Shown here: positions 5,771-54,246 of the stretch, one piece after another
How positions within the stretch are numbered: the first letter of the stretch is position 1
Layout of the letters: each line of letters starts with the position of its first letter
Assembly (NCBI RefSeq): GCF_963921235.1
Contig: NC_086097.1
Coordinates: 92,134,001 to 92,198,000, forward strand
Reading direction: 5' to 3'
Source of the DNA: Mobula hypostoma
Lineage: Eukaryota
DNA length: 64,000 nucleotides
Position numbers and translations under genes: made by a program
The notes under the pieces: model-generated
Seen by the model: only the letters and a program-made list of their open reading frames with translations
What the model was told of the DNA's origin: nothing
The model's database searches: none

Positions 5771-7552
5771 AGCCATCAGCTGAAGCAATTGAGTCTAAAA
5801 TATTTGCTGCTCTGTGCTTAGTCAACTAATACTGAGAGAACGATTGGTTTTTACATTCTCAAATGTTTAAATCTCACCACTGAGGTACAGTATAGCTTAA
5901 ATAGATGATCAGTTAGCATTTAATAAATGGTGAGATGAGAGCAATATGAAGGATTATGAGAGGATTAATGGTTAAATATCATATCACCTTAGTATTTCCC
6001 ATTGTATACAAATGAGGCCATTTGGGCATTTAGACTATCACATCTAGCCTGGATCAATGAATGAGCTTCCCAAATAGCCCCACCTTTGCTTCTTCCCTAG
6101 GATTTATTTTTAATCCTTTACTACATCAATTCCCTTTTGACAGATACCGTGTTAACAAATGCCCAATTAGCTCAGTTGTACAGTAATTTGGAGTCGTTGA
6201 ACTCCAAGACTCAAGCACATGGTCAAAGACAATACTTCAGTGGAGCTCTGAGTTATTAAAGATCCCATCTACCTGTTCCTGTGGTTCAGACTTATCCTCA
6301 AAGCTCTTCCTCGATTACTTGAGGAATATTTTGCACATGGAAAGGACTAGGTTAGTTCATTTCTTTCCTCTTACTATTCAAACATTGATTCTTAACAATA
6401 CTTAATAATACTTGGTACTTAAGCAGGAATAAAGTGCAGCTTCTAACAATATCCATAAAGCTCAGGCAGTCTGGCTACAGCGGGGTACATAGACTAGTTT
6501 CCATTAATACTTGAAATAATATTATAATATATTGAAGATTAGAACAACAACTTGCATTTTAGTGTATTTTGAATATCAAAACTGTTCCTAGGCACTTCAC
6601 AGGAGCATTAATAAGTAAAATTACGCTAAGTCCTCAAAAAAAGAGAGGTGGCCAGATTTTCAAGAGCACATTTAAGAGGGTGGGGAGACATAAAAAGTTT
6701 ATGGAGGAAATTTTGGAGCTTAGGTAGGATCAAGGCAACCATTGGCATGCCTGTCAGTGATGAGATGATTAAACTTGGGAATACCCCAAAAAGGAGCATT
6801 GGGATGAAGGATTGCAGAACTGGAAAAGATGACAGAAAGTAGTAGAGTGAACATGAAGGGAGTTGAAATCCAGATTCTGAAGGGGAAACACAAAGTTCCT
6901 GGGTTAGCTGAACTGTTAGCAGGTACTGGAATTCAATGAGTCTTGTAAAAATTGAGTATAATTTATGTTTTTCTTGTGAATGCTGCTGATATGATACTAT
7001 GCACCTGTTTTTAATGCACTTGTACATACACGTACTTGTGCATATGACAACAAATTTGACTTTGACTCTGAGCTCATGCGGCAAAGAGGATGGGAGGCTG
7101 GACATTGGACCGTTGGAACAGTCTACAGATAACAGAGTTATAAGTTGAGTTGCTGAAGAGGGGTGGAAACAGGCACTGTTCTGGAGGTGAAAAGCATCTT
7201 AATGAAGAAGATAGGGAATTAGAGACTGAACCTGGCACTGCACAGTTGTAAGTGAATGATTATGGAGCCAGTAGTTGGCAAATATGATGTTTAGAACTCT
7301 AGAAATCATACAATCATTGAACATTTATGATACATATGGAGGCTGTTCAGTCCATTTTGTCTGCTCCAAGCAAAAGAGGAATTGTCAATTCCAATCCCAC
7401 CTCCCAATTTTATGGTGTTGGCCCTACAGGTCTTACTCTTCAAGTGCTGGTTAACTAAGCCGAAGATTTCAGCCTCTTATTCCCCCCACTTCCCTCTAAT
7501 CCACTCATTCCTTCAAATTGATGGTCCTTAGTTTGAGTTTCCATCCTATTCA

Positions 7553-7832
7553 AGCAACACACATCAAAGTTGCTGGTGAACGCAGCAGGCCAGGCAGCAT
7601 CTCTAGGAAGAGGTACAGTCGACGTTTCAGGCCGAGACCCTTCGTCAGGACTAACTGAAGGAAGAGTTAGTAAGAGATTTGAAAGTGGGAGGGGGAGGGG
7701 GAGATCCGAAGTGATAAGAGAAGACAGGAGGGGGAGGGATGGAGCCAAGAGCTGGACGGTTGATTGGCAAAAGGGATATGAGAGGATCATGGGACAGGAG
7801 GCCCAGCATCTACAGATTTCCTCGTGTTTGCG
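7553..7832 (-). mobile_element. PLE pLTR insertion with hammerhead motif (7617-7652) and 14-bp TSD
   Basis: ttccatcctattca at 7539-7552 and 7833-7846; body similar to 1890-2140. Confidence 0.88.
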
Positions 7833-8408
7833 TTCCATCCTATTCATTCTATTTTAGATCTCTATGAATTAGAATAGCTCAAATTTAGTGTCCCCTTAGC
7901 CTTCTCTGTGGGAAGTTAAGCCAATGTTAAAAGCTTCAGTTACTCCTAGGATCTGGCTGTAGAGAATTCCAACTCAGCCATTTCTGTGTCTGATGAATCA
8001 AGAGGAGAGGCAGTGGTAGTTCAAGCTGTTAAGAGCAGGCTGACGACAAATGAAGAATAGAAAGAAGGTAACATAGAAGAGCAAAGAATAGCCATAACAC
8101 ATGTTTCTCTGCCTACAAATAGATAACTTGGAATAAAAGAACCAGTCAATCAAGGCTGGTCCCTACAGCTGAGTAATGATATGGTAGAAGAACATAGAAC
8201 AGTCAAGACAAAGTTGCAGATGGCTCTGATAGAATGGGAGAGATGAGCTACTCCAGTCAGTCACATCTGTCAACCATAAACATAGCAAGCCTTCATCTGT
8301 ACTAGAATGCACTTTCCATCTTCAGCTGGCTGAACTCCACCATATCTACGGCACTAGGTTACCAAAGGATCCACTTAAAAACTTGTTGCATTGAGCAACC
8401 TGGATCAA

Positions 8409-8660
8409 GCAACGCGCACAAAATGCTGGGGGAACTCAGCAGGCCAGGCAGCATCTATGGGGGAGAAAAAAGTACAGTCGACATTTCGGGCCAAAACCCT
8501 TCAGCAGGACTGGCCCTTCCTGAGTCCTGCTGAAGGGCCTCGGCCCGAAGCGTTGAGTGTACTTTTTTCTCCCCCATAGATGCTGCCTGGCCTGCTGGGT
8601 TCCTGCAGCATTTTGTGCGTGTTGCTCAGATTTCCAGCATCTGCAGATTTTCTCTTGTCT
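8409..8660. mobile_element. Palindromic PLE pLTR remnant
   Basis: ~100-bp imperfect inverted arms around 8511-8521, each with a decayed CTGxxGAAGGG..CCCGAA motif. Confidence 0.8.
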
Positions 8661-8948
8661 GCATCAAGCGTGCATGATTGCACTTGTCACTCATGTCTTA
8701 CTGAAGTTATTTCATAAGAACATAGAAAATTCAGATAGCTCTCTCAGGTCCAAATTATGCTAGCTATCAGCATCCATATTACCTGCTCAGAATTGCTAGA
8801 AATGAGTTATCTTGGTTCACAGTCCTGTTTCTGATAAGTTTGCAACCTGCTTCTTAAGATGTTATTTTGATATTCATTACAAACTGTATAGCTGATACAA
8901 ACAGCTACTAATGCACACTGACACAAAAGTGTGGAACGCAATGCTATA

Positions 8949-10467
8949 CAGTGCCTATGAAATGTATGCAATCCCCTTGGAAGTTTTCATGTTTTGTTTT
9001 ACAACATCGAATCAGTGGATTTAATCTGGCTTTTTTTGACACAGATCAACACAAAAAGGCTCTTTCATGTCAAAGTGAAAACTTCTCTACAAAGTGATCT
9101 AAATTAATTACAAATATAAAACATAAAATAAGTGATTGCATAAATATTCACATCCCTTTAATATGACATACCAAATCATCACAGGTGCAGCCAATTGGTT
9201 TTAGAAGTCCCATAATTAGTCAAATGGAGATCACCTGCGTGCAGTCAAGGTGATTCAACTGACTGTGGTAAAAATACACCTGATCTGGAAGGTCCAACTG
9301 CTGGTGAGTCAGTATCCTGGCAAAAACTATGCCTTGAAGACAAAAGAACACTTCAAACAACTCCACAAAAAGTTTATTGAAAAACACAAGTCAGGAGATG
9401 GATACAAGAAAATTTCCAAGTCACTGAATATCCCTTTGAGTACAGTCAAGTCAGTCAAAAAGAATTGGAAAGGATATGGCACAGCTTTAAATCTGCCAAG
9501 AGCAGGCCATCCTCAAAAACTGAGTGACCTTGCAAGAAGAGGACTAGTGAGGGAAGCCACTAACAGGCCCATGACAACTCTGGAGCAGTGGCTGAGATGA
9601 GAGAAACTGCACACACAACAACTGTTGCCTGGGTGCTTCACCAGTCACAGCTTTAAGGGAAAGTGGCAAAGAGAAAGACACTGTTGAAAAAAAACACATG
9701 AAATCTTGGCTAGAATTTGTCAGAAGGTATGTGGGAGACCCAAGTCCGCTAGAAGGAGGTTCTGTGGTCCAATGAAACCAAAATTGAGCTTTCTGGCCAT
9801 CAGACTAAACACTATGTTTGGTGTAAGCCAAAAACACCACACATCATCAGAAACACACCATCCCTGCTGTGAAGCATGGTGATGGCTGCATTATGCTGTG
9901 GGGATGCTTCACTGCAGCAGGCCCTAGAAGGCTTGTGAAGGTAGAGAGTAAAATGAATGCAGCAAAATACAGGGAAATCCTGAAGGAAAACCTGATGCAG
10001 TCTGCAAGAGAACTGCGATGTCTGAGAAGATTTGTTTTCTAGCAAGACAATAACCCCAAGCATAAAGCCAAAGTTACACAGGAATGGCTTAAAACCAGAA
10101 TCCAGACCTCAATCCAACAGAGAATTTGTGGCTGGACTTGAAAAGGGCCGTTCACTCATGATTCCCATGCAATCTGACAGCGTTTGAGCAGTTTTGTAAA
10201 TGGGGAAAAATTGCAGTACCAGATGTACAAAGCTGATAGAGACCTATCCACACAGACTCAAGGCTGTAATTGCTGCCAATGGTAAATAGTTAAGCAATCA
10301 ATTATTTTGTGTTTTATATTTGTAATTAATTTAGATCGCTTTGTAGAGATTTGTTCTCATTTTGACACGAAAGTCTTTTTCTATTCATCAGTATCAAAAA
10401 TACCCCTAATTAAATCCACTGTGATTCAATATTGTAAAACAATAAAACATGAAAACTTCCCAGGGAA
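8949..10467 (+). mobile_element. Decayed Tc1-like DNA transposon (long ITRs, disrupted transposase)
   Basis: TA|CAGTGCC start; ~170-200 bp inverted ends, right tip missing; HTH 'HKSGDGYKKISKSLNIPLSTVKS'; catalytic remnants VLWSNETK, QDNNPKH, PDLNPTENLW; stops and frameshifts. Confidence 0.93.
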
Positions 10468-13366: not shown

Positions 13367-13806
13367 CTGATTGCACTGTTTCAACAGGAAACCTTCAGGC
13401 ACAAGTGTCCCCTTAGGGAGCAGGGCATGGGCAGGGTCTGATACTTGATTCTGATTGGCTGGATCTGAATTGCCCATTCCTGATTGGTTAGCTTGAATTG
13501 TTCTGATTGGTTGATTTTTAGGCCAAACCTCATCAGGAATCTTCAAAGCTAGAGTAGAGATAGGTCCAGTCTGGCATCACACATTCCTAAAGAGGGTTTG
13601 GCCTAAAATAAATTGGCCAATCAGAACAAGGCCAATTTAAACTAACCAATCAAGAGTAGGCAATTCAGATCCCCCACTCAGGATTGAATATTAAACCCTG
13701 CCCACTCAAGAAGACATATAAGGAGGTGTCTCTCAGGGGATTTATCATTTGATTAACTTGTGCCTGAGGAAGATAGTTGGGTTTACTGTTGAAATAATGC
13801 AATCAG
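13367..13806. repeat. ~440-bp degenerate inverted repeat with clustered CCAAT boxes, probably an old PLE-type palindrome
   Basis: ctgattgca..tttcaacag..caggcacaag / cttgtgcctg..ctgttgaaa..tgcaatcag; ttttaggccaaacc / ggtttggcctaaaa. Confidence 0.7.
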
Positions 13807-14401
13807 AGTTAAGTATTGCCTATGGATAGATTTGATAACCAGTCACAGGGCTTCTGTAGTCAGTCAAGTGTAATGTTACCTCTCCTAAATCGTCCTCCTT
13901 TGTCCCAGTAATGTTTACCTGACATACTCCTGTAAAGATTCCTGGGATACTTCAGTGTGTTAAAGGTGCTTTATAAAGCAAGTTGTTGTCCTACTTTCTG
14001 CTGTGCTGATATTCTGCAGACCTTGAGAAGAACAGGCCAGGTTTGTCAAAATTAAGTAACCAATCCTGGTGCCAATAAAAATGTTTGCCCAGTCATCCTA
14101 TCTACATAACAAGCACAGAACAGTGCCTTAGGCAAATCTGCACAACACAGATATTTACACTAATACAACTTGCAATATTGACTAAGTTTCTTTCAGGTAT
14201 GAGGGGCATACAGAGGCAGTAAAACTGTGGTTAGATGTTTTCAATGAAGTATTAAGGTTGCACCATGAGGCACGATTGGGAAAAAAAAGCAGTTATGGAC
14301 AGGAATTTAAACAACAACAAAAAAGTCCTCCTGAGCTTATAGCTTGTGAAATGTTGGTTGAGAAGGGAGCTGTGCAGTACAAAGTTTAATGAAATTCTTA
14401 C

Positions 14402-14512
14402 TGAGAGCAAGTCCAGCACAGGTTAGAACTACTCCAGTAACAATGGTGGACGTAACCACGGCAATTATTAGGGAGGAAGGAAGATGGCCTTCTGGAATGA
14501 TGCCTCCAGGAA
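14402..14512 (-). CDS. ltk: LTK/ALK-family exon: transmembrane segment (VPGGIIPEGHLPSSLIIAVVTSTIVTGVVLTCAGLAL)
   Basis: Acceptor tctacag| and donor |gtaag; 111 bp, phase 1-1; hydrophobic helix after 'PEGHLP', like ALK 'PEPHLPLSLILSVVTS'. Confidence 0.9.
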
Positions 14513-15849
14513 CTGTAGACAAAGAAACAAAAAGCAATTAAGACCTTAATTCACTTACGCCCAAAGGTTCATTCTCAATGCTTTCATGCACAACAGCTCC
14601 TGATTATAGTATTAGAGACTGTTGATTGATCAGAGGAACAAAACCAAAAAACACCAGGCCAACAGTTTAACAAATGTATCCCATCCCCAGAGTTGACCTA
14701 CAAAGCATTCTCCTCAAGACACTACCCAAGGTGCCCAGGAGAGAAACGTCTGAGTCAGTGTGCTCCACCGGAGTGCCTGGGGTGGGGTGGTGTGACATCC
14801 AAGCTGGAGTTGGTGCTGCCCCCCAGTGTTTGCTTGGCAGAAGACAAGCTGTGTTGTATTCAACTGCAGACTGCTGCAACATTCCTGGACTCAGGGTCTT
14901 GGACTGCATTCTTTGTGACTGTATTTTACAGATATCTTGTAGGTACTTGCTATCCTATATGTTCTTGCTATCTTGTGTGCTCCATGTGTCTTGTGCAGTG
15001 TATGACTGTTGGTCTTGTGTTTTGCACCACGGTCCCGGAGTTATGGTGTTTCATTTGGCTGTATTCAAGGGCATTCATGTATGGTTGAAAGACAATTAAA
15101 CTTAAACTTTCAGGTGCAACTTCAGGGAGGACAGCAGGTCAATCTACTGCCAAGCCAGAGGCAGGATCAGCTGGTCACAGGGGAAGAGAGGCTATTTGGT
15201 AGAAAGATGAGAGCCTGGGTCATAAAAAGGCAGGAATCTTCTACGAGGGTTTGGGAGTAAACCTTGCTTTAAAAACCTAGTGTAGGGTTTCAGCCTTAAT
15301 GATTAATTCCTTTCCTCTCTCAAATGCTGCTTGATCCACTGAGTCCAGATGACAATATCTGTTGTCTTTTCAGGTCGTCTCAGTAGCCAGCAGTTGGTGG
15401 GGTGGGGGGTGGAATTTAATGGTCAGGAAAGTGAATTTAGTAGTCATGGTGGTAGATTTCGAAGCTGTATGATTGGTAGTTGGAGGTACTATAGGTGCAG
15501 GGTGATCGTCACGTGGTTTGGGAGGCAGACCAATCTGTGGTTGAGCAAGGGTAGGAGGTTGGGTGGTGGGTGCAGATCACTCTGGAGGAGGACATTCTCC
15601 AGGTGGGCAAGGAGATGGTGGAGCTGAGGGCCCAAAAGAGAATTAACCACCTTAAAAATACACCCAAGTCAGATTTCAAGCCAGGCTCCCTTTAAGTCAC
15701 AAGGGCCACCCATGCATCTCCTGCATGAGTGGCCCATGAACAGTACATGGCGCATATGTGTAAATAAAAATTAGGCAAGTAGTTCCGTGAATTGCCTGCC
15801 ATTGGATGTGACTGAGCGTGCATGATACCAGAGAACCACAAACAAAACA

Positions 15850-16066
15850 CATGCACGCCATCCAAAATGCTGATGGAACTCAGCAGATCAGGCACTATCC
15901 CTGGAAAGGAATAAACAGTTGACTTTTTGGGCCAAGACCCAGTTCTAATGGAAGGTCACGGCCTGAAACAGCGACCGTTTATTTCTGTCCTGCCTGACCT
16001 GCTGAACTCCTCCAGCATTTTGTATGCTTCACTCTGGATATCCACCATCTGCAGAATCTCTTGTGT
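15850..16066. mobile_element. Palindromic PLE pLTR remnant (old)
   Basis: aaaatgctg..gaactcagcag arm versus ctgctgaactcctccagcatttt arm; decayed hammerhead text 'gaaggtcacggcctgaaac'. Confidence 0.7.
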
Positions 16067-16435
16067 TAACAACATGTATAGGTTCTGTGCAATTTAAATC
16101 ATCTCCAATATTCATGGTGAACTACATTCCTGTTTCTAGCATGTATTCCTTCTGCAGTTCCAGATATTTATTGCTAGAGGTCACTCATGTCCTATCTAGT
16201 TGCCTATGCAAGCACACGCTCCATTCATTACCCAATTCCTGATATGACTAAGCTATTTATTACAATGATACAGTACAGGAGTTGAGCTGTCCATAATCAG
16301 TCTTAATTACATCTTAAACTATGAACAACATGAACTTAAACTAAGGACCAGAGGAAACACAAGTTCCAATAATAAGTTGGCCTTATCATGTACTCGATAT
16401 GTTAAGGTGAAAATGCAGAGGACATTTCCCATTAC

Positions 16436-19103: not shown

Positions 19104-19139
19104 TTTATTATATATATAATTCAATGCTCTGGCCCCTCA

Positions 19140-21360: not shown

Positions 21361-22004
21361 TCATAAGCCCACGTGAAAATATGAAACAATTTGCTAATCA
21401 CAAGAGGTTCTGCAGGTGCTGGAAATCCAGAGCAACACACAGTGCTGGAGAACCTAGCTGGTCAGACAGCATATCTGGAGGGGAATGAGCAGTCAACAAT
21501 TCAGGCTGAGACTCTTCATCAGGGCACGTGAAAGCTCTCCCCCTGAGAAAGTCAAGAAGGAGATTCTATTTTTAGAATAAGAATCAATCTATTTACATGA
21601 CGTTTGGTTAAGTCTTCATACAAATCAATGGAATTCTCTTCCAAAACTCACTTTAAATCTTTGACGCAATGAAATTGGTGGATCAGGTCAATGAACGGAG
21701 TTATGTTATTGATCAACCTTGAACTCAATGAACAGCAGCTTAGGTTGAAACCATTGGATGGGCCACTCCTATTCCTCTGTTTCAACTGTGGCGCTTGAAC
21801 TCCTCCTTGGCTACTGAAGATAATTCTCATCAGCCTGCAAGCCAAACCCTTTCACACCGACACCGAGCCAAAGTGGAAAGCAAATAAATTATTTTTCAAG
21901 AAGTTACCTTTTCAAGAACTGTTTCAATGATTTATTGAAATAAATGTTCCTTTCAATGTGTAAGCAACATCAAAACCAACTGGCAGCATGTCTATGCACT
22001 TTAC

Positions 22005-24667: not shown

Positions 24668-24776
24668 TCACAATAATCCACTGGACAACCACTTGAACAA
24701 TAGCTATGCTGGTGTGACTTGGAAACTAAGTGTTGGAATTGTCACCCGTATACCCAAAGCTGGAGCTCAGACTATG

Positions 24777-24962
24777 CAAACAACAGGAATTCTGCAGATG
24801 CTGGAAATTCAAGCAAGATACATCAAAGTTGCTGGTGAACGCAGCAGGCCAAGCAGCATCTATAGGAAGAGGTGCAGTCGGTCTCGGCCTGAAACGTCGA
24901 CTGCACCTCTTCCTATAGATGCTGCTTGGCCTGCTGCGTTCACCAGCAACTTTGATGTATGT
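24777..24962. mobile_element. Young fold-back PLE pLTR mini-insertion with 13-bp TSD
   Basis: agctcagactatg at 24764-24776 and 24963-24975; perfect ~63-bp inverted arms 24818-24880 / 24898-24960. Confidence 0.92.
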
Positions 24963-25089
24963 AGCTCAGACTATGGCTGACTTAGAGTGGTGCATTTTCC
25001 AGACAGATCCTGCCATGGTAACACTGACTCCAGAATCAAGTGTTGCTCAAACTTTTGACTTGCAGAATTGTAGAAAACCTAAAAGCACA

Positions 25090-27136: not shown

Positions 27137-27268
27137 CTTAAAAATGTATGTTGCTCCACCACCTCCACCTCCACCTCCTGCCCATTCTAACATGGCTTTA
27201 TTATTGTTGTAGTCATCTTCAATGATGGAAGATTCTCCCAAGCAGATCTTCTGAGTCACTTGGTCTTT
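27137..27268 (-). CDS. ltk: LTK exon ([44 protein letters not shown])
   Basis: 132 bp, phase 0-0, cttcag|...|gtatac; [13 protein letters not shown] motif; 'CLGES' is LTK-type. Confidence 0.96.
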
Positions 27269-29590: not shown

Positions 29591-31489
29591 GTCATCGTGC
29601 AGAGAATTTACAAGCTCCCTACGTACAGTGGTGGGATTGAACCCGGGTATGCTGGCACTTAAATCGTGTTTTACTAACTGTTACGCCAACAGTGGTGCTC
29701 CAAATAAATAAATAACATTTAAAAAGCACAAAGGAGAGGCTGATAAGGAAATTGGTCAAATGCACAACTGGAATTTACTCAGATGGGCAACTTGGTCAGC
29801 GTGGACCAGCTGATCTGAAGGGCTCATCTCTGTATGGCCCTATGACCTGTGTGAACTTGGATTCACCCTGTCAGAGATATTCACTCGGTCCTATCAATAC
29901 CTCAGCTCCCCCTCCACTCCGGCAAAGTGGGTCTCACCCTGACCTCCAATGCTGTTTGTTTGGAGTTTGCATGTTCTCCTGCATGGCTTTTTCTTTTCTG
30001 GGTGCTCTGTTTTATTTTCTGTTTTCTGAAGATCGGAGCGGTTAGCAAAATGCTATTGCAGCATCACTGGCCCAGGTTCAATTCTGCAGCCATCTGAAAA
30101 TTGCTGCAGGTTTCCCCTTGTGTGGGTGAATGGTGGAATCTGGGGAGGTTTAGGAAGAGAATATTGGAAAATAAATGAGGCAATGGGATTGGTGGGTTAC
30201 TTTGAAATCTAGTCTAGATTAGATGGACTGAATGTCCTATCTGTGTTATAGTTTACTTATTTGGAGATACAGCCAGCGTAGAACAGCCCAGCAACTCACC
30301 TATCTAATTATGAGAAACAGAGTTAATGTTTCCAGTCGGAGACCCTTGTCATAACTGTAAAAGTTAAACGAAAACAGGTCTCTGACTGGAAACATAAACT
30401 CTGTTTCTCCCTCCACGGTGCTACTGCCTGACTTTCAGATGTTTCCAACATTTTCTGCTTTTATTTCTTTGCTTCACTCCTGATCTCAATGACCGTGCGC
30501 TTTGTGCACAACATAGGGACTTTGGACGAGTCCAGTCCCATCTGGTGTCTTGTCTGCCCTACTCCACACTGGCTATCTCACACCCAGCCCTGCTGACACA
30601 GTCTCAGGGATTTATCAACAGAGAACCAATTCACAATGTCATCAGGGAAAATGTGTGGAGACTAGGAAGATTGTGAAGTCTGAAGATAAAGTCCAAAGAC
30701 CCCTACACCCCAACACTGTCTATCCATTGAACTTTATAGGATGTATATTCAATACACGTAACTGTGCACCACTTACAGTGGATAGTCTTAGCTCAGCCAT
30801 CAATCCAGAGTGATTAAAATCGTGGATGCACAGGGCAAAAGAAGGCAAGGTAACTTCTCAAAAGGGTAAGTAAACCCATTGAGGGATACAAAATCAAGGA
30901 CAAGAAGTTTAAAACTGTGAACTTCAAGACTTCAGGACCTTGAAGCTCTTCTGTTGAATATTCAAAATGCTCTACTTAGGCTCTCTGGAGAAAACCTTGA
31001 ATCATTTCACAGAAAAAAAAGTGATGCGGTTTGTTTAAAATGACCCAGAGCAGAAACATCAGGCTGTAGATTGTGCTTCAGCTTTAAGTGAGATGAGTTT
31101 GATTGCCATTCATCAGTCAGTAGTACATGAATTCTGAATGAGGAGGCGTTAATGATACAACGATACATCGATCCTGAATGAGGAGAAGTTCTTGATACGA
31201 GGATCCTGAAATCAGGAGGAGGGAAGTGCAATGAATTTGCTACAATAATCCATGGCAATCTCTGACCAAATAGCTAAGGGCACCGAATAACCTGAGTGCT
31301 CCCATCAGCCACACACTACCGACCTCACTGCCGACAAAGCAAGATAGCAAATCACAATTAAGCCTGAGTCCTTTCAGAAATAGAAATATTAGACAAATTA
31401 GCAGAACCTGCTCATGTTTTGGATTAATGACCCTTCCTTCTCAGAGTTGGCTGAGTTCTTTCAGCATTTCAGTTTTAGTTCCAGATTTT

Positions 31490-36146: not shown

Positions 36147-36152
<6 letters not shown>

Positions 36153-41700: not shown

Positions 41701-42406
41701 GCATAACTGCCCTCTGTTGCTAAATTATCAAATGATTGTGGGTTCAAGTACAAAATACAGTGAAAATTCTATTCTGCATACTGGTTGGTGCAGTCTTTCA
41801 TTGATCCTACTTTGGATTTATTGAGTATGCCCGCAAGAAAATTAATCTAAGGTTTGTATAAGGTGACATACATGTACTTTGCTAATAAATTTACTTTGAA
41901 CTTACACGTTATTACACAGAATGAGCCATTCAGACCACTGGGAGAATGAAGAGCTTTCCCAACAATCACATTCCCCCTTCCCTCTATGAGTGAAAAGCAC
42001 AAAATCGAAAGAATCCGAGCATATTCAGCTCAGCTCGGTGTTCATTAGCTGCAGGCCACCCTGATCAGAATGGGGGTGGGGGTAGGGAAGGGGGAGAGGG
42101 AGAGGGAGACACCAACACCTGCAGACACCTCCCTCTGTCAGCAGTGAGCAAGAAGCTGGCACACAGCGCTGAACACTTGCTCTCCTCCAGCACTCACCTC
42201 GATGATTTCAATCATCCTTGGTGCTTTAATTGGTGAGATCAGTGAGAAATGAGGTCGATCAAGGGCTCACACCCCATCTCCAGATTTCTTGGCCTTGAGG
42301 CCACACACTTGGCTTGGAGACGCCCCCGTAGACAGCAAAGAGACCAGATCATTCAACAGACCACCACCAAGATGTAGATCACGGGCCCCAACAATAGCAG
42401 AGCCAA

Positions 42407-42596
42407 AGCAGCCCACACAAAATGCTGGAGGAACTCAGCAGGCCAGTAGACGTTTCGGGCCGAGACTGAAAGGTCTCGGCCCAAAATATCGACTATTCAC
42501 TCCTTTCCACAGATGCCGCCTGGCCTGCTGAGTTCCTTCAGCATTTTGTGTGTGTTGCTTTGGATTTCCAGCATCCGCAGATTTTCTCGTGTTTGA
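42407..42596. mobile_element. Palindromic PLE pLTR remnant
   Basis: cacacaaaatgctggaggaactcagcaggcca / tggcctgctgagttccttcagcattttgtgtg; centre 'tttcgggccgagac..gtctcggcccaaaa'. Confidence 0.8.
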
Positions 42597-44232
42597 GTAG
42601 CAGGACCACATTTGAAAGAAAAAGACATAAAAGAAGTGAAAGAAGTAGTTTCTAGAGCCATCCAGAGGTTGTTGCCCTTGGTCGCGTTGTGTGCTGGTGT
42701 CACCTTCTCCGCTTCAGCCAGTGTGCTTTCTCCCTCGCATGTCCATTGGCTCCTCATAACCATTGACCTCAGCTGAAAGGTGATGAGCGTGGAAACCAGT
42801 GCGGTCACAAGGAGAACGTATAAACTTTACGCAAAGTGCACCTGAGGTCAGGATTGAACTTAGATCAGTTGAGAGTGAGGTGGAAGCTCTAACCACTGTG
42901 AAAACAAATCCATCCTCTACTTCACCGTTTGGCTGTGAGGCAAAGGTTTCATTTGCCTTTGTGACTGGAAGTGCACAATGAGAAAACGAGTATTCTGAAT
43001 GTAACGGACAGCCTGCTGGAGGAACTCAGTAGTGGAGCACCATATGTGGGGGGAAAGGAATTGTAAACGCTGCAGGTCGAAACTTTACATAGCCCTGATG
43101 CCAACATTACGGCTGTGTAGAGCTTTCAGCTGAAATGTTGACAATTCCTTTCCTCCCACGGGTGCTGCTCGACCCACTGCATTCCTTCAGCGGGTTGTCT
43201 GTTACTCCTGATTTCAGCATTTACGCCTCATTTCCCTGAAATATCCTCAATGCTCGTAGTTTCTCCGCCAGTCAATAAAACAGATTATTTATCAAAAGCA
43301 CTCTGCAGTCTGTGGTATCTTGCTATAAACAATTTTGCTACAGTAGTCTGTACTGGAAACATAAAATAATACAAATGGCTATAAAGAGTTTCTTGAGAAA
43401 TCAGAGCCGTACTGACGTCCATGCTTCTGCGATTATTCTTTCATGCGGACGAGAAAACTAGTCACACTTTCTTTCCCATATGCAGCAGGCAACACTCCAT
43501 CTATAAATGGGCCATTTTAAAAACTGTCTGAGAAAAGTTTCAGAGCTCAGCTTGGGACCTCACCTTTATGTCTTCAGCTTCCCTTATTCAAAGAGGGTCA
43601 CGACTTGTCCTCTTCATCAAACATCCTCATTATATTGGTAAGATGCCTGAGTGAATGCCACTTCAACATATATTGGCTCAATGTCATCTCTCCAAGGGGT
43701 CTCTCGCCAGTTTTCCCATGGAATAGTTTCTTACTCATCACCCCACGTGACCAAGACAGAAACCTGGCCTGAATAACACTATTCAAAGTGCTGGAGGATT
43801 TTTACAACTCACTACATAGGCCTTTAATTAACAACGCAAAGTAGAATGCACTGCCAGAGATTTGCTCTACAACCTTCACAAACCTTCCCAAATCACCAAC
43901 ACCCATTGAGATTCCTGAAAGCCTTCTTCAGCGTGCCAACATGGCATAGTGCCAGGGCCATTTTCTTATCACACTGCCACTGCCTCTTAGAGACTCAAAG
44001 AACAACACCTCACATTTTACTCAGCCCGGCTGCCAAGATCGGGTGGGCGAGTTGGTGCTGGTGAGATGGGGAGGGGAGGGCGGGTTGAATTTCTCAGTCA
44101 ACTGTTTGTGGTACCACCACTGGGCTCTATCCCTCACCCAGAATTCAGTCAAGGTGATGGATTTTCTTTTATCGGACGCACAAATTCCTCTTCTCAACCG
44201 CATGTTCCTTTCCTGCTGAGGCTACACTTTAC

Positions 44233-44332: not shown

Positions 44333-45017
44333 GTCTACACATAAATCCTTGACACAGAGAGACTGAGAGGGGAAGCGGGGCAGTGGTGGGGGGTGGGGGG
44401 TGGGGGAGGTGGAATTGGGGTGAGAGAAAGAGTCTTTTGTTGAGGCTCCTTCTGAATAATTGACAGCATGATGAATTAACCTCACAAAGGACCAACACTA
44501 AACTGCTCGCGTTTGTCCATTTCCCAGTACATTACAGATCTATTAATCCGGATCCTTCTTCCTTCTTGGAATAAAGGTTCAAATTCTGCAAAAGGCAGAG
44601 AGTGGGAGTCTCAGGCATGTTCCAAGTGTGCAAGCGTGGAAGGTGTAATGCAAGCAAATCTGTCACAAACTCTAAGAATTACTAAGCGGATCAACTATAA
44701 ATTAAATTTGGCTGAATCAAGTCAGGTTTTTTTTTTGCACCATTTGTAGGTTGATTCTCACTTCCCAAGTGGCAAAGTAACCACGATGGAGCAAGTGCTC
44801 AACAAATTATGTCGACAGGAATCTTCACTACTTCTGCAAGTGATTGAAGAAACAAGAATGTTTTTTTAATTCACTCATCTTGGCAGTTGAAGACCCTGTT
44901 GTGTTCAGATAAAAAGGCACCACTTTCATTTGCCTTCCTCCATTGTTCTCCTGTTTCCTTTCGAGAAGCCATTCAAACTCAAGCACAGGGGTAAAACCCT
45001 GAAATAGTAGCGAGAAA

Positions 45018-45975
45018 AACAACTGCTGGAGGAATTCAGTAGGCCAGAGAGTGAGTGTGTGTGTGTGTGGCGCGCGGGTGGGGGGAACAAACAGTTGATG
45101 TTTCAGGTCCAAGCCACTTCATCTGCATTGAAAGATAGAGGGGAGGTAGTCAATATAAAGAGGTGAGGTAGATGGGCAAGAGGTGGCACGTGATGTAGCC
45201 GAGATAGGCAGATGGATTCAAGTGAAGGAGGTGGGGTGGAGATAGTGATAGGTGATAGGTGGAAGCAATAAAGGCTTGCAGATTATGGAATCTGATAGGA
45301 ATGGAGGGTGGAACATGGAAACAAATAAGGGAGATGGGGAGGGCAGGTGGGAAAAATGGGGGGGGAGGGGACCAGTGTGTGGGTGATGGGCACATGGAAT
45401 GGAGATTTAGGTGGAGGAGGAAGAGAGAAAGGCGGGAAAGAAACTGGGTGTTTGGAGGAAGTGGAGGGGTTATTGGAAAGAAGGTTTTTTGGAAGGTAAC
45501 CTGGATGGATAAGGAAGAGAAAGAAATGGACAGAAGGGGGAGCAGGTTATCTTAAAATAGAGAATTCAGTGTTCAAGCAGTCATGTTGTAGACTACCCAG
45601 GCAGAATATGAGATGCTGTTGCTCTAATGTGCAATTTGTCTCATTCTTGCAGTAGAGGAGGTCAAAGATAGACAGATTGGAATGGGGATGGGGAGGGGAA
45701 TTAAAATGTCTAGCAACCGGATTGTGCAAATGAAAGTTTGGCTATAAAACAGCTTTCAGTAGATTCTTTCTTCCCCGCTCTTGATCTTTCCCACCCACCT
45801 AGCTTCACCTTTTAAGTCAGACATCTCCCTTCCTTCCCTCTCAGTCCTAAAGAAGTGTCTTGGCCCATAATGTCGACAACTTACTCTTTTCCGTAGATGC
45901 TGACTGACCTGCTGAGTTCCTCCAGCATTTTGTGCCTGTTGCTTTGGATTTCCAGCTTCTACAGATTTTCTTTTG
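45018..45975. mobile_element. Old PLE: minus-strand GIY-YIG tail plus pLTR, followed by an inverted pLTR
   Basis: ORF 45547-45729 'PVARHFNSPPHPHSNLSIFDLLYC..LEQQHLIFCLGSLQ' is homologous to 52656-53399; + strand pLTR at 45840-45975. Confidence 0.8.
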
Positions 45976-48900
45976 TTCAGTAAGTAGAGGATGGACTTCC
46001 TTTTCTCCATTCAGTCATAAAATCAGTACAGTACGTATTGCACTCCTCCGGGGCAAAGATTGTGTTATCCTGCACACAGTCACACCCCTCAGACCACTAC
46101 TGTTGTCCTGTACACAATCACATACCCCCAGATCACTATAGTCACTGTACACAACCACACATCCCAAATCACTACTGTTATCTTGTACACAGGCACACAC
46201 CCCCTAAATCATTAGTAATCTTGTACACAGTCACATTTCCCAAATCACAAGTAATCCTGTACACGGTCACATTCCCGAAAATCAGGAGTAACCCTGTACA
46301 CAGTCACTCTCCCCTAAATCACTAGTAATCCTGTACAGAGTCAGTCCCCCCAAATCACTAGTAATCCTGGACACAGACACACAGAACCCTCCCCCCCAGT
46401 CACTAGTAATCCTGCACACAGTCACATTCCCCAAATCACTAGTAATTCTGTACACAGACACACACACCCAAATCACGAGTAATCCTGTAGACAGTCACAT
46501 CCTTCCAAATTACATGTTAACCTGTACACAGTCACATCCCCCAAGTCACTAGTAATCCTGTACACAGTCACATCCCCCAAATCATTAGTAATCCTGTAGT
46601 CACACTCACAAATCACTAGTAAACCTGTACACAGTGACATTTCCCCCAAATCACTAGTAATCCTGTATGTCATATCTCCCCAAATCACTAGATATCCTGT
46701 ACACAGTCACACTCCCCCCAAATCACTACTAATCCTACACACAGTCACATTCACCCAAATCACTAGTAATGCTGTACAGAGTCACACTCACCCAGATCAC
46801 TAGTAATCCTGTATACAGTCACACACACATATATCACAAGTACTGCCGTACACAGTCACATCACCCGAAATAATAAATAATTCTGTACATAGTCACATCC
46901 CCCCAAATCACTAGTAATCCTATACAAAGTCACACTTTCCCAAATCATTAGAAATCCTATAAAAAGTCACATTCCCCCAAATCAGCAGTAATCCTCCACA
47001 TAGATACAGCCCCCCAAATCACTAGTAATCCTGTACACCATCACATCTCGCCAAATCAGTACTAATCCTATACACAGTCACGTTCCCCAAATCACAAGTA
47101 ATTATGTACACAGTCAAACCCTCCTAAATCACTAGTGATCCTGTACACAGTCACACCCCATCGAATCACTAGCATTCCTGTACACAGTCACATTCCCCCA
47201 AATCACTAGTAACCCTGTGCACAGTCACACTCCCCCCAAATCACCAGTAATCCTGCACACAGTCACATTCCCCCAAATCACTAGAAATCCTGTACAGTCA
47301 CACTCCCACAAATCACTAGTAAACCTGTACACAGTGACATTCCCCCCAAATTACTACCAATCCTGTAGACAGTCATACTCCTCCCAAATTACTAGTATTC
47401 CTGTACACAGTCACATCTCACCAAATCACTAGTAATCTTGTACACTGGCACATCTCCCCATATCACTAGTAATCCTGTACACAGTCACACTCCTCCAATC
47501 ACTAGTAATCCTTTACACAGTCACAACCCTGAAATCACTAGTAATACTGTACACCCTCACACACCAAAATTACTAGTATGCCTGTAAACAGTCACATTCC
47601 CCCAAATCACTAGTAATCCTGTGCTCAATCACACCCCCCTAAATCGCTATTCATCATGTACACAGTCACATTCTGCCCAAATCACTACTAATCAGGTACA
47701 CAGTCACACTCCCCCCAAATCACTAGTAATCCTGTACAGTCACATTCCCAGCAAATCACTACTAATCCTGTACACAGCCACATTCCCCCCAAATCACCAG
47801 TAATCCTGTATACAGTTAAACTCCCCCAAATCACTAGTAATCTTGAACACAGTATCACTCTCCCAAATCTCTATTAATCATGCACACAGTCACATTCCCC
47901 CAAATCACTAGTAATCCAGTGCACAGTCACACTCCCCCAATTCACAAGTAATCCTGTACACAGTCACAACCACCCAATTCACAAGTAATACTGTACAGTC
48001 ACACACCCACAAATCTCAATTAATACTATACAGAGTCACACTCCCCAAATCACTAGTAATCCTATACACAGTCACACTTCTTCCCCAAATCACTAGTAAG
48101 CATGTACACAGTCACATTCCCCTGAAATCACTAGTAATCCTGTGCAGTCACATCCCGCAAATCATGAGTAATCCTGTACACAGTCACGTCCCCCCAAAAT
48201 CACCAGTTATCCTGTACATGGTCACATCCCACCAATTCACTCATATTCCTTTCCAAAGTCACACACCCTCAAATCACTAGTAATCCTGTACACAATCACA
48301 CTCACTCCAAATCACTAGGAATCCTTTACACAATAACACCACTTCAAATTAAAAGTAATCCTGTACACAGTCACACACCCTCAAATCACAAGTAAGCCTA
48401 TAAACTGTCACAATCTACCCAAATCACTAGTAATTCTGTGCACAGTCACACCCCCTAAATCACTATTAATCATACACACTGTCACATTCCACCCAAATCA
48501 CTGCAAATCCAGTAGACAGTCACACTCTCACCAAATCACAAATAATCCTGCACACAGCCACATCCCACCAAATTACTAGTACTCCTGTACACTGTCACAC
48601 TCCCCCAAAATCACAAGTCATCTTGTACACAGTCACATTCCCTACAAATCACCAGTAATCCTGTATACAGTCATATCACCCAAAATCATGAGTAATCCTG
48701 TACACAGTCACATCATCCAAAATCATGAGTAATCCTGCATACAGTCACACCCCCTCCAAATCACTAATAATCCTGACAACTGTCACACTCTGCTAAATCA
48801 TGAGTAACCCTATACACAGTCACATCCCTCCAAATCACAAGTAATCCTTTACAGTCACCCACCACCGAATCACTAGTATTCCTGTACGTAGTCACATCCC

Positions 48901-51900
48901 CCCAAATCACTAGTATCCTGCAGTCACATTCCTACAAATCACTAGTAATCCTCTACACAGTCACATTCCACCAAATCACTCATAATCCTGTCCCCAAATC
49001 ACTAGTAATCCTGTACAAAGTCACATACCCCCCAAATCATGAGTAATCCTGTACACAGTCACATCCCCCAAAATCACAAGTAATCCTGTACACAGCCACA
49101 TCCCACCAAATCATTAGTACTCCTGTACACTATCACACTCCCCCAAATCACTGGTAATCATGTACAGAGTCACATCCCCCCAAATCACAAGTAATCCTTT
49201 ACACAGTCACATACACCTCCAAATCACTAGTAATCCTGTACACAATTGCATTCCCCAAATCACAAGTAATTATGTACACAGTCACACTCCCCCAAATCAC
49301 TAGTAATTCTGTACGCAGTCACATTACCACAAATCACTAGTAATCCTGTACACAGTCACATTCCCCCAAATCACTAGTGATCATGTACACAGACATACTG
49401 ACCCAAATCACTAGCAATCCTGTACAAATTCATATCCCCAAAAATCACTAGCAATCCTGTAGACAGTCAAATCCCCCCAAGTCACTCATAACCCTGTCCA
49501 CAGTCACACACCTCCAAATCACTAGTAATACTGCACACCATCACACTTTGTTCAAATCACTAGGAATCCTTTACACAGTCACTTTCCCCCCAAATCACTG
49601 GTAATCCTGTACAGAGTCACACTCCCCGAAATCACTGGAAATCCTGTACACAATCACACTCCCTCCAAATCACTAGGAATCCTTTACACAATGACACCAC
49701 TTCAAATCACTAGTAATCCTGTACACAGTCACACACCCCCAAATCACAAGTAAGCCTATAAACCATCACAATCTACACAAAATCACTAGTAATTCTGTGC
49801 ACAGTCACACCAACCAAATCACTGCAAATCCAGTAGACAGTCACACTCTCACCAAATCACGAGTAATCTTGTACACAGCCACATCCCACCACATTACTAG
49901 TACTCCTGTACACTGTCACACTCCCCAAATCATTAGTAATCCTATACAGTCACATCCCCCCCAAATCGCTAGTAATCCTTTACACAGTCACAAACCCCCA
50001 AAATCACAAGTCATCATGTACACAGTCACACACCACCGAATCACTAGTATTCATGTACGTAGTTAAATCCCCCCAAATCACTAGTATCCTGCAGTCACAT
50101 TCCCACAAATCACTAGTAATCCTGTAAACAGTCACACTCTCTCCAAATCACTAGTAATCCTGTACAAGGTCACATACCCCCCAAATTACTAGTGAACCTG
50201 CACACAGTCACATCACCTCAAATCACTGGTAGTTCTGTACACAGTCACACTACACTAAATCACTATTAATCATGTACACAGTCAGGTTCCACCCAAATCA
50301 CTACTAATGCAGTAGACAGTCACACTCCCCGCAAATCACGAGTAATCCTGTACAGAGCCACATCCCACCAAAACACTAATAATACTCTTCACAGTCACAA
50401 ATCCCCCAAATCACTAGTAATTCTGTACACAGTCACATTCTCCAAATCATTAGTAATCCTGACAACATTCACACTCCTGCAAATCACTAGTAATCCTACA
50501 CACAATCACATCCCCAAAAATCACGAGTAATCCTGTACAGTCACACACCTCCGAATCACTACTATTCCTGTACGTAGTCACATCCCCCTAAATCACTAGT
50601 ATCCTGCAGTCACATTCCTACAAATCACTAGTAATCCTCTACACAGTCACACTCCCCCAAAGTGACTGGTAATCCTGCATGCTGTCACATCCACCAAATC
50701 TCTAGTAATCCTGTACACAGTCATATCCCCTCAAACTACTAGTAATCCTTTACACACTCACATCCCTCTAAATCACTTATAATCCTGTCCACAGTCATAC
50801 ACACTAAAATCACCAGTCATACTGTAGACAGTCACAATTGCCCAAATCACAAATAATCCAGTACACAGTCACACTCACACAAAATTAGTAGTACTCCTGT
50901 ACAAAATTACACCCCCCCAAATCACTCGTAATCCTGTATGCAGTCAGAACCACCAAATCACTAGTAACCCTGTACACAGTCACATTCCCCCCAATCACTA
51001 GTAATCCTCTACACAGTCACACTCCCCCAAAGTGACTGGTAATCCTGCACACTGTCACATTCACCAAATCTCTAGCAATCCTGTAAACAGTCAAATCCCC
51101 CCAAATCACAAGTAATCCTGTACACAGTCGTATCCCCCCAAACCACTAGTAATCCTTTACACAATGACATTGCTCCAAATCACTCATAATCCTGTCCACA
51201 GTCATACAAACTAAAATCACCGGTCATATTGTAGACAGTCTCGATCACCCAAATCACAACTAATCCAGTACACAGTCACACTTCCACAAAATTAGTAGTA
51301 CTCCTGTACAAAATCACCCCCCAAATCACTTGTAATCCTGTATGCAGTCACAACCACCAAATCACTAGTAATCCTATACACAGTCACAACTCATAAATCA
51401 CTAGTAATCCTGTACACAGTCATATCTACCCAAATCACGAGTACTCCTGTACGCAGTCACATCCACCAAATCACTAATAATCATGTACACAGTCACGTTC
51501 ACCCAACTCACTAGTAATCCTGTACACAGTCACGTTCCCCCAACTCACTAGTAATCCTGTACAGTCACAATCCCCCAAATCACTAGTAATCCAGTACGCA
51601 GTCACATTTCCCCAAATCACTAGTAATCCTGTACAGAGTCACATCCCCCCAAATCACAAGCAATCCTTTACACAGTCACAAACCCCCCAATCACAGTAAT
51701 GCTGTACAGTCACATTCCCCCAAATCACTAGTAATCCTGACATCAGTCACACTCCTTCAAATCAATAGTAATCCTGTATACAGTCACACTCCTCCAAAAT
51801 CACTAGTAATCCTGTACACAGTCACATTCCCCCAAATCACTAGTAATCCTGACATCAGTCACACTCCTTCAAATCAATAGTAATCCTGTATACAGTCACA

Positions 51901-52326
51901 CTCCTCCAAAATCACTAGTAATCCTGTACACAGTCACACTCCCCCAAATCAATAGTAATCCTGAACACAGTCATATCCCCCGAAATCACGAGTACTCCTG
52001 TACACAGTCACATTCCTCCAAATCACTAGTAATCTTGTATACAGTCACATTCCCACAAATCACTAGTAATACCATACAGAGTCACATTCCCCAAAATCAC
52101 CAGTAACCCTATACACAGTCACATCCCCCAAAATCACTAGTAAGCCTGTAAACAGTCACACTCTCCCCAAATCACTAGTAATTTTGTGCACAGTCACACC
52201 TCCCTAAATCAGTATTAATCATGTACACAAACAACAGGAATTCTGCAGATGCTGGAAATTCAAGCAACATACATCAAAGTTGCTGGTGAACGCAGCAGGC
52301 CAAGCAGCATCTATAGGAAGAGGCGC

Positions 52327-52362
52327 AGTCAACGTTTCAGGCCGAGACCCTTCGTCAGGACT
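52327..52362 (-). ncRNA. Minimal hammerhead ribozyme motif (GUU cleavage triplet)
   Basis: Minus AGUC-CUGACGA-AGGGUCUCGGCCU-GAAAC-GUU-GACU. Confidence 0.75.
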
Positions 52363-52655
52363 AACTGAAGGAAGAGTGAGTAAGGGATTTGAAAGCTGGA
52401 GGGGGAGGGGGAGATGCAAAATGATAGGAGAAGACAGGAGGGGGAGGGATAGAGCCGAGAGCTGGACAGGTGATAGGCAAAAGGGGATACGAGAGGATCA
52501 TGGGACAGGAGGCCTAGGGAGAAAGACCGGGGGGGGGTGACCCAGAGGATGGGCAAGAGGTATATTCAGAGGGACAGAGGGAGAAAAAGGAGAGTGAGAG
52601 AAAGAATGTGTGCATAAAAATGAGTAACAGCTGGGGTACGAGGGGGAGGTGGGGC

Positions 52656-53399
52656 CTAGCGGAAGTTAGAGAAGTCAATGTTCATGCCATCAGGTTGGAG
52701 GCTACCCAGACGGAATATAAGGTGTTGTTCCTCCAACCTGAGTGTGGCTTCATCTTTACAGTAGAGGAGGCCGTGGATAGACATGTCAGAATGGGAATGG
52801 GATGTGGAATTAAAATGTGTGGCCACTGGGAGATCCTGCTTTCTCTGGCGGACAGAGCGTAGATGTTCAGCAAAGCGGTCTCCCAGTCTGCGTCGGGTCT
52901 CACCAATATATAAAAGGCCACATCGGGAACACCGGACGCAGTATATCACCCCAGTCGACTCACAGGTGAAGTGATGCCTCACCTGGAAGGACTGTTTGGG
53001 GCCCTGAATGGTGGTAAGGGAGGAAGTGTAAGGGCATGTGTAGCACTTGTTCCGCTTACACGGATAAGTGCCAGGAGGGAGATCAGTGGGGAGGGATGGG
53101 GGGGACGAATGGACAAGGGAGTTGTGTAGGGAGCGATCCCTGCGGAATGCAGAGAGAGGGGGGGAGGGAAAGATGTGCTTAGTGGTGGGATCCCGTAGGA
53201 GGTGGCGGAAGTTACGGAGAATAATATGTTGGACCCGGAGGCTGGTGGGGTGGTAGGTGAGGACCAGGGGAACCCTATTCCTAGTGGGGTGGTGGGAGGA
53301 TGGAGTGAGAGCAGATGTACGTGAAATGGAGGAGATGCGTTTAAGAGCAGAGTCGATAGTGGAGGAAGGGAAGCCCCTTTCTTTAAAAAATGGAGACAT
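52656..53399 (-). pseudogene. PLE ORF C-terminal part: linker plus GIY-YIG endonuclease (5'-truncated, no RT core)
   Basis: 'PLVLTYHP', C-x4-C-x2-C, 'VIYCVRCSRCGLLYIGETRRRLGDRFAEH', 'PVATHF', 'GMN'. Confidence 0.92.
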
Positions 53400-54016
53400 C
53401 TCTCTCGTCCTAGAATGAAAAGCCTCATCCTGAGAGCAGATGCGGCAGAGATGGTCCTAGAATGAAAAGCCTCATCCTGAGAGCAGATGCGGCGGAGACG
53501 GTCCTTTGCTGAACATCTACGCTCTGTCCGCCAGAGAAAGCAGGATCTCCCAGTGGCCACACATTTTAATTCCACATCCCATTCCCATTCTGACATGTCT
53601 ATCCACGGCCTCCTCTACTGTAAAGATGAAGCCACACTCAGGTTGGAGGAACAACACCTTATATTCCGTCTGGGTAGCCTCCAACCTGATGGCATGAACA
53701 TTGACTTCTCTAACTTCCGCTAGGCCCCACCTCCCCCTCGTACCCCAGCTGTTACTCATTTTTATGCACACATTCTTTCTCTCACTCTCCTTTTTCTCCC
53801 TCTGTCCCTCTGAATATACCTCTTGCCCATCCTCTGGGTCACCCCCCCCCGGTCTTTCTCCCTAGGCCTCCTGTCCCATGATCCTCTCGTATCCCCTTTT
53901 GCCTATCACCTGTCCAGCTCTCGGCTCTATCCCTCCCCCTCCTGTCTTCTCCTATCATTTTGCATCTCCCCCTCCCCCTCCAGCTTTCAAATCCCTTACT
54001 CACTCTTCCTTCAGTT

Positions 54017-54052
54017 AGTCCTGACGAAGGGTCTCGGCCTGAAACGTCGACT
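54017..54052 (+). ncRNA. Minimal hammerhead ribozyme motif (GUC cleavage triplet)
   Basis: agtc CTGACGA agggtctcggcct GAAA cGTC gact. Confidence 0.8.
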
Positions 54053-54246
54053 GCGCCTCTTCCTATAGATGCTGCTTGGCCTGCTGCGTTCACCAGCAAC
54101 TTTGATGTGTGTTGCTTAATCATGTACACAATCACATTCCACCCAAATACTACTAATCCAGTAGACAGTCACACTACCCCCAAATCACGCTTAATCCTGT
54201 ACACAGCCACATTCCCCCAAATCATAAGTAATCGTGTACACAGTCA

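Follow-up and report, generated by a model that had tools for sequence, protein, structure and literature searches.

The question raised by this locus is how an insertion can come to consist of the end of a retroelement joined to an inverted copy of that same end, within a single target-site duplication (TSD). The locus is a 64,000-nt stretch of DNA from Mobula hypostoma (NCBI RefSeq assembly GCF_963921235.1, contig NC_086097.1, positions 92,134,001 to 92,198,000 of the forward strand; hereafter, the window), for which a preliminary description had listed nine insertions of Penelope-like elements (PLEs), each thought to be a pseudo-long terminal repeat (pLTR) joined to its own inverted copy. 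This one window is our sample; it holds 22 element ends, or arms, most of which are old, and the old copies were judged by eye. Pieces of the element were located by an inverted-repeat scan, BLAST, and a profile made from the arms, and positions within the element are numbered relative to the predicted cut of a putative hammerhead ribozyme, with +1 at window position 54049. The anatomy of the copies, their TSDs, the presence of a short tail on one of the two arms, the copy-specific junctions, and the protein motifs are all direct observations in the window. We consider it probable that priming of reverse transcription from both ends of a staggered target break is the best explanation for these dead-on-arrival, 5′-truncated insertions of the Neptune type.

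Penelope-like terminal sequence was present at all nine of the sites previously described and at six further places, giving 15 pieces, nine or ten of which are two-armed (Table 1). The arms at each of the nine sites were aligned with one another, and the alignment was tested against 30 shuffles per site. Eight sites, 45018 included, scored above the shuffles, with matches of 622/625 (52231), 67/69 (24777), 93/104 (8409), 41/44 (42407), 31/33 (30315), 58/72 (15850), 77/99 (43010), and 23/27 (45018). Seven of the nine are true fold-backs, with arms that are 78–99.5% complementary, and for these the description as a pLTR joined to its own inverted copy was correct, but it does not apply to the remaining two. 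At 7553, the arm-versus-arm score of 14 lies below the null maximum of 19, and the copy comprises a tail-less arm of ~255 nt, reaching to about −185, joined to an inverted tail-only arm of ~30 nt, with four bases in common at the junction. The arms of 45018 are 53% alike over 96 columns and are closer to other copies than to each other (the mate ranks 17th and 15th among neighbors), which argues against a pLTR joined to its own copy.

In every two-armed copy, the outward-facing end is the same on both arms. Among the 14 arms of the seven true fold-backs, 11 have their mate as nearest or second-nearest neighbor, and the two arms of a fold-back would therefore derive from one source; overall, the copies fall into at least four sequence groups. 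Four copies are young, and comprise two hairpins (52231 and 24777), one copy with non-overlapping arms (7553), and one that is single-armed (1857). The two-armed majority agrees with the earlier suggestion that inversion is the usual outcome of integration, but with true hairpins at only two of the four young copies, that suggestion was too strong. The preliminary description also overlooked a tenth fold-back (1744–2487), two single arms (1857–2448 and 21394–21526), and three fragments (15276, 28435, and 35738). The possibility that the fold-backs are assembly artifacts was rejected, given that the flanks differ, TSDs are present, and the arms carry at least two differences. The young single arm at 1857–2448 sits within an older pLTR, near the short end of that copy, and shows homology over ~6–7 bases where it is truncated.

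The three young two-armed copies are enclosed by exact TSDs of 14 bp (7539–7552/7833–7846), 13 bp (24764–24776/24963–24975), and 16 bp (52215–52230/54116–54131), just as had been reported; among 2973 random block pairs, not one matched over as many as 13 bp. Each TSD includes 1–5 bases that also match the element ends, and we therefore take the true stagger to be ~8–16 nt, with priming perhaps aided by a few paired bases. The 16-bp TSD lies within a 37-bp satellite, in which 9 of 152 neighboring blocks share at least 16 bases. It was nevertheless judged unlikely to be a satellite artifact, since the exact 16-mer was found only at the two flanks of 52231, and the satellite phase there shows that unit positions 1–14 are repeated.

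The outer ends of the two arms are unequal. One arm stops at +63 to +73, whilst the other carries a further stretch, referred to here as the tail, that measures 31–35 nt in the young copies. All eight two-armed copies with readable outer ends have a tail on exactly one arm (old copies by eye), a count that omits 30315, whose left outer end is missing, and 45018, which is doubtful, though conforming. Had the ends chosen independently, the chance of eight out of eight would be 0.5^8 = 0.004. Contigs from two organisms, in which tail-bin depth is 0.60 and 0.65 times that of the next bin, as compared to 0.63 expected if half of the arms are tail-less, point weakly in the same direction, as they are subject to edge effects. 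This one-tail rule and the zone of inner arm ends described below, both of which had been overlooked, are the most informative features of the copies.

At the base level, every copy in the window has a junction of its own, and the single fixed junction that one amplified hairpin would have is not seen there. The arms have 0–4 bases in common at the junction, which in 8409 instead contains two inserted bases and in 52231 a duplication of 47 bp, and no closing stem is kept. The statement that the inversion point differs in every copy is thus borne out within the window, but the inner ends are unevenly spread. Fourteen of the 22 lie within a 43-nt zone over the hammerhead (P ~1e-4 against a log-normal fit to the lengths), as do 11 of 17 when five uncertain arms are left out (P ~4e-4), in a test that is post hoc, that counts non-independent arms from the same insertion, and whose profile is centered on the region of the zone. 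Four to seven arms, all of them old, have their inner end close to −32, where helix I begins; this 4-nt peak within the zone is not significant (P = 0.10, or 0.21 without the five uncertain arms). The inner end coincides with the predicted ribozyme cut in one of the 22 arms (24777L), and the idea that arms turn at the cut was rejected on that count. The tail arm is the one that reaches farther inward in five of the eight two-armed copies (52231, 8409, 15850, 42407, and 1760); in 24777, it is the tail-less arm that extends 19 nt farther inward.

The identity of the element comes from its largest copy (52215–54131), which contains an open frame of 266 codons on the minus strand. The translated fragment matches the Pfam GIY-YIG profile with E = 1.5e-4 and 22.5 bits, 0.1 bit below the cut-off of 22.6, and shows a GIY/YIG core with CxxC (two cysteines between GIY and YIG) and two downstream histidines (CCHH), the open reading frame (ORF) stopping 3′ of this core. 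A CX4CxxC linker finger is located at residue 119, and the same pattern is found in 15 of 16 homologs. The best homolog, at 75% identity, is annotated from a ray and is followed by three sharks, which points to a cartilaginous fish, probably a ray, as the host; identity to a 906-amino acid protein bearing a reverse transcriptase (RT) is 40%, and an RT domain (PF00078) is listed for 4 of the 16 homolog matches. The best homolog is an RT-endonuclease (EN) Penelope fragment whose source annotation, an isoform of a host kinase-domain gene, is probably a gene-model artifact. Judged by their sequence, the insertions are the ends of EN+ PLEs with a Neptune-type linker finger, and we presume Neptune, in preference to Nematis, based upon the distribution of Neptune in vertebrates. 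A CX2-5CxxC linker finger marks Neptune/Nematis and is absent in Penelope/Poseidon (Craig et al., 2021, PMC8557442), and our first guess of the Poseidon clade was dropped once the CX4CxxC finger was found. The Penelope identity and retrotransposition origin originally proposed are backed by the GIY-YIG, CCHH, and linker-finger motifs, the tail at one end, and the 5′ truncation. Two other identities were set aside. Junctions, lengths, and TSD lengths all vary, and the ends are asymmetric, which does not fit a miniature inverted-repeat transposable element (MITE); adjacent hammerhead arms in the window are all on opposite strands, and not in head-to-tail tandem as in a non-LTR retrozyme. Pattern scans for further copies returned none in metagenome contigs and none in viral contigs, and a scan of prokaryote genomes returned one locus, which is alike only over the 23-nt pattern and was taken as chance.

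The hammerheads previously noted in the pLTRs are putative motifs that match a minimal-hammerhead descriptor in four young instances (54017, 52362, 7652, and 1989), with one additional match lacking helix II; Rfam, at gathering score, found no hammerhead in the window. Helices I and II form in the predicted fold. Folding z-scores of the region are not significant (−1.09 to 0.72), as expected because the motif has no helix III. Within −41 to −19 (54007–54031 in the window, and equivalents), bases immediately 5′ of the hammerhead are predicted to pair with the presumptive catalytic core in an alternative hairpin that would block the ribozyme, and a similar pairing can be seen in the older 8409 arm. 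Helix I starts at the AG after a pyrimidine tract (54010–54018), and we take this AG to resemble a splice acceptor as well as an initiator-like word. The intron of Penelope from Drosophila virilis ends at the 5′ end of helix I, and pairs of hammerheads on opposite strands, 100–700 bp apart, are found in Schistosoma (Cervera & De la Pena, 2014, PMC4209133). The window motifs resemble the minimal hammerheads of PLEs described in the same study in their core boxes, the extra base before helix II, the 4–5-bp helix I, and a helix III without a loop, self-pairing at 15.2–16.2, and differ from them in that the young family has G-U in place of the G10.1–C11.1 pair and a 4-bp helix II.

Based on these features, we propose that the GIY-YIG endonuclease would cut both target strands with a stagger of ~8–16 nt, and that each freed 3′ end would prime reverse transcription at an internal position of the element RNA, shortly downstream of the hammerhead. 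One target end would do so at a short start site (+63 to +73) and the other at a long site (approximately +96 to +108), giving exactly one tailed arm. Both cDNAs would then extend toward the 5′ side of the RNA, stop at variable points, and be joined head to head by repair with 0–4 common bases or small insertions, and fill-in of the stagger would create the TSD. If both cDNAs passed the short site, a hairpin would result; a tail-primed cDNA that stopped early would give non-overlapping arms (7553), and use of only one target end would give a single arm (1857). That both primings take place in one event, and that the cDNAs are joined in this manner, is what we infer. Support for the idea that both staggered target ends prime, which had been raised in the preliminary description, comes from the TSD around both arms, the one-tail rule, copies 7553 and 24777, and in vitro data on PAc, a Poseidon element of Anolis carolinensis, whose protein cuts and extends both target strands and initiates at two internal positions, between which the tail lies (Frangieh et al., 2024, PMC11167929). 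The tail arm of 7553 stops within ~10 nt of the short start site, which suggests one shared RNA, whilst in 24777 one arm ends at the cut and the other crosses it, which suggests two RNAs or cleavage between the syntheses; in each case, a single copy cannot decide.

The published interpretation of such structures is a different one. Self-priming at palindromes is considered in the Discussion of Arkhipova et al. (2013, PMC3846280), and EN-mediated resolution was suggested by Craig et al. (2021, PMC8557442); by this route, the cDNA or antisense RNA would snap back at a hairpin and be copied into the second arm, and the endonuclease would trim the second end, including the tail. The tail-less arm should then be a copy of part of the tail arm, as is compatible with the five of eight two-armed copies in which the tail arm reaches farther inward, and the −41 to −19 region is indeed predicted to fold into a hairpin. 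However, the tail-less arm is the longer one in 24777, and the arms of 7553 do not overlap, so that neither copy, and hence two of the three young two-armed copies, can come from copying one arm off the other. Junctions that share just 0–4 bases and lack a closing stem are also not what snap-back would leave, and we regard this origin as unlikely.

We think it very unlikely that the structures arose after insertion, either from independent insertions beside or into older copies or from central deletion of long palindromes that left short hairpins behind. The unlike arms of 45018, which are without a TSD, and the position of 1857 within an older pLTR are of the kind that independent insertions would produce, and old copies are mostly short whereas young ones measure up to 1.9 kb. 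Against this, a single TSD encloses both arms in all three young two-armed copies, overlapping arms are 97–99.5% alike, the one-tail rule is unexpected from independent events, and the young copy 24777 is already short.

Further evidence was provided by contigs from elsewhere, where 17 runs of four coded organisms contain at least half of the words of an arm. Contig pieces assigned to the element number ~267,000 in one run and ~262,000 in the other (contig sets X1 and X5), and depth drops inward from the terminal end in two organisms, as expected of 5′ truncation. Among the 15 of 1288 joints listed, a strand-changing joint from −31 to +58 occurs in both organisms, with one common base, as would fit a fold-back junction; its depth, which is no copy number, is 73 in X1 (with ~210 more in a probable variant) and 317 in X5. 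This joint adds one more end at −31/−32. In X5, it is as deep as a second listed joint (317.4 and 317.3), as would be expected of a single multi-copy unit rather than of many separate events. The two joints at this depth (317) in X5, 52273/52361 and 52287/52232, hint at a tandem or multi-copy unit derived from a mini fold-back, and the first of them is also found in X1. Among the rows listed, X5 has GATC insertions at GATC sites and so looks like a proximity-ligation library, and X5 skips were therefore excluded. The depth of the −31/+58 joint in both sets and the four to seven arms that end near −32 could indicate that the short hairpins stem from the amplification of one or a few non-autonomous families with fixed junctions (MITE-like, or like short interspersed elements), but we rate this the least probable of the accounts, as no junction is shared between window copies, these fall into at least four sequence groups in which arms mostly group with their own mate, TSD length varies, and the equal depths in X5 suggest a single multi-copy unit.

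Several observations weigh against two-ended priming. Five of the 15 pieces are single-armed or fragments (1857, 21394, 15276, 28435, and 35738), and neither an RT core nor a full-length master was found in the window. Among the seven older two-armed copies, 8409 has a borderline 7-bp repeat (p = 0.055), and no TSD exceeds chance at the other six (15850, 30315, 42407, 43010, 45018, and the old 1760 copy), whose flank repeats of only 4–6 bp are not significant. The −31/+58 joint shows that some junctions are common to many sequences, which limits the earlier claim that every copy has its own inversion point. In the case of PAc, hammerhead cleavage is unnecessary in vitro, and the start sites are alike on the top and bottom strands, which gives no direct biochemical backing to the pairing of a short with a long site (Frangieh et al., 2024, PMC11167929).

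The clustering of inner ends led us to consider, tentatively, that mini-arms may be “strong-stop” products, for which reverse transcription would initiate internally on the 5′ pLTR and the cDNA would run off at the RNA 5′ end 100–135 nt away, this end being either a start site at −32 or the ribozyme cut (+1). A dimeric enzyme that paired a short with a long start site in each event would then make mostly small hammerhead hairpins by design. The 14 of 22 ends in the zone, the four to seven near −32, the contig joint at −31/−32 in two organisms, and the end of 24777L at the cut speak for this idea, whereas the P values for the peak (0.10 and 0.21) and the absence of an end at −32 among the seven young arms speak against it, and stalling at RNA structure or a repair bias could yield the same 43-nt zone. 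We consider it possible, but doubtful. If it were true, the copies would document, in the genome, both the 5′ ends of the RNA and ribozyme cleavage in vivo.

The fold-back structure is real and largely known. Pen2a_Av and Pen2_Av of Adineta vaga combine an inverted pLTR with a TSD of 9 bp, and one of their inverted pLTRs bears a 31-bp tail (Arkhipova et al., 2013, PMC3846280); an inverted pLTR, a TSD, and a one-sided tail are the typical arrangement of PLEs, with the formation of tandem and inverted insertions listed as open (Craig et al., 2021, PMC8557442); and form C of D. virilis Penelope has inverted terminal repeats of copy-specific size, and its upstream pLTR contains a start site (Schostak et al., 2008, PMC2377424). 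The window copies share with these elements the inverted terminal copies of variable length, the TSD around the whole unit, the tail of 30–40 nt at one end, and the 5′ truncation. They differ in that most units are 150–300 bp and without an ORF, their TSDs are 13–16 bp at face value versus 8–10 bp in the rotifer examples, their junctions keep no long palindromes, and the family is very abundant. Likeness to PAc lies in the pLTR hammerhead and in the two RT starts downstream of it, which in PAc bound the tail, and in PAc both strands are cut and extended; PAc, however, belongs to the Penelope/Poseidon clade, whereas the window element has the CX2-5CxxC linker of Neptune/Nematis. In the available text of the PAc study, inverted insertions are not derived from the two start sites, the word “inverted” being used once, of a blocking group, and no reads ending at the ribozyme cut are described (Frangieh et al., 2024, PMC11167929). 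The preliminary description had spoken of MITE-like hairpins made by a poorly characterized retrotransposition route; a retrotransposition origin is supported, but the structure has been published and the both-strand step has been demonstrated for PAc. The explicit two-ended model and the clustering of arm ends were not found in print, in a search of main texts that covered few subscription papers and none of the 2005–2006 PLE reviews.

A close parallel is L1 twin priming, in which each target end acts as a primer and the two resulting cDNAs are joined head to head through short homology, the whole lying within one TSD. There, the second primer anneals far inside the RNA, and L1 arms are non-overlapping, whereas the arms in the window start ~30 nt apart at the same end, and hence overlap and form a hairpin.

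Table 1. Penelope-like copies and their parts in the window (window coordinates; a minus strand is the hammerhead-reading strand of that arm)
Feature	Coordinates	Strand
Youngest copy: left TSD copy, 16 bp (exact-repeat test), last 2 bases also match element tail end	52215..52230	
Youngest copy: long arm with tail, pLTR with putative hammerhead, ORF 3′ end	52229..53505	-
Youngest copy: tail of ~31–33 nt, only on this arm	52229..52261	-
Youngest copy: putative minimal hammerhead motif, left arm; position 17 C to U via CpG-type change at 52331	52327..52362	-
Youngest copy: open ORF 3′ end with CX4CxxC linker finger, GIY-YIG core with CxxC, two His of CCHH; without RT core	52656..53456	-
Youngest copy: 47-bp tandem duplication (2.1 copies, 96%) at junction	53407..53505	
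Youngest copy: tail-less inverted arm, 99.5% complementary to left arm	53506..54117	+
Youngest copy: putative minimal hammerhead motif, intact; predicted cut between 54048 and 54049	54017..54052	+
Youngest copy: right TSD copy, first 2 bases also match element end	54116..54131	
Young mini fold-back, 13-bp TSD; tail arm 24774–24879 ends at predicted cut (−1/+1); tail-less arm 24880–24962 starts at −19/−18	24764..24975	
Young two-armed non-hairpin, 14-bp TSD; tail-less arm 7548–7806, tail-only inverted arm 7803–7833	7539..7846	
Older fold-back, arms 89% alike, right tail; inner ends −32 and ~−41; possible 7-bp TSD	8404..8669	
Old fold-back, right tail; inner ends −20 and −32/−33; TSD not detectable	15849..16068	
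Old fold-back, different subfamily; outer part of left arm missing	30312..30467	
Older fold-back, right tail, ~27-nt deletion in left arm; inner ends −18 and −24	42403..42596	
Old fold-back, third subfamily, arms 75–78% alike; both inner ends ~−32 to −36; decayed right tail	43001..43226	
Two opposed arms, 53% alike and apparently of different subfamilies; no TSD; unlikely to be a single insertion from one source	45010..45979	
Old tenth fold-back (1760 copy); arms 1744–1770 and 1768–1856 + 2443–2487, split by young single arm	1744..2487	
Young single arm with tail, 97.7% identity to 52231; without TSD; short homology where truncated	1857..2448	-
Old single arm with tail, ends −30 to −32; 9-bp repeat 21370–21378/21525–21533, left copy 15 nt off apparent start	21394..21526	-
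Three old Penelope-like fragments	15276, 28435, 35738	

The window contains several other repeats. Blocks of the 37-bp satellite, with 166, 54, 25, and 43 copies at 71–75% matches and a strong negative GC skew, lie between 46067 and 62851, and are interrupted by the youngest Penelope copy and by a long interspersed element (LINE) fragment. The latter is an RT fragment at 55188–56165, which Pfam matches to RVT_1 and ALKBH8_N; further fragments, which lack any Pfam match and which we presume to be CR1-like, lie at 27226, 31274, and 39470. Two related inserts between satellite blocks (60834–61289 and 62881–63501) contain open frames of 151–206 codons. Finally, two old inverted arms of 124 nt (9028–9151 and 10282–10405), which are 78% complementary, 1.1 kb apart, and unrelated to the Penelope ends, look to us like the remnant of a DNA transposon.

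Given that the fold-back structure has already been described, the value of these copies is that of a test set, and not of a new class of element. A very abundant and recently active vertebrate family offers thousands of natural integration products, and the one-tail rule, together with copies 7553 and 24777, links the two-strand, two-start result obtained with PAc in vitro to genomic structure. The interest that remains lies in a testable rule, namely that each event pairs a short start with a long one, and in the possible record of RNA 5′ ends that the mini-arms may hold.

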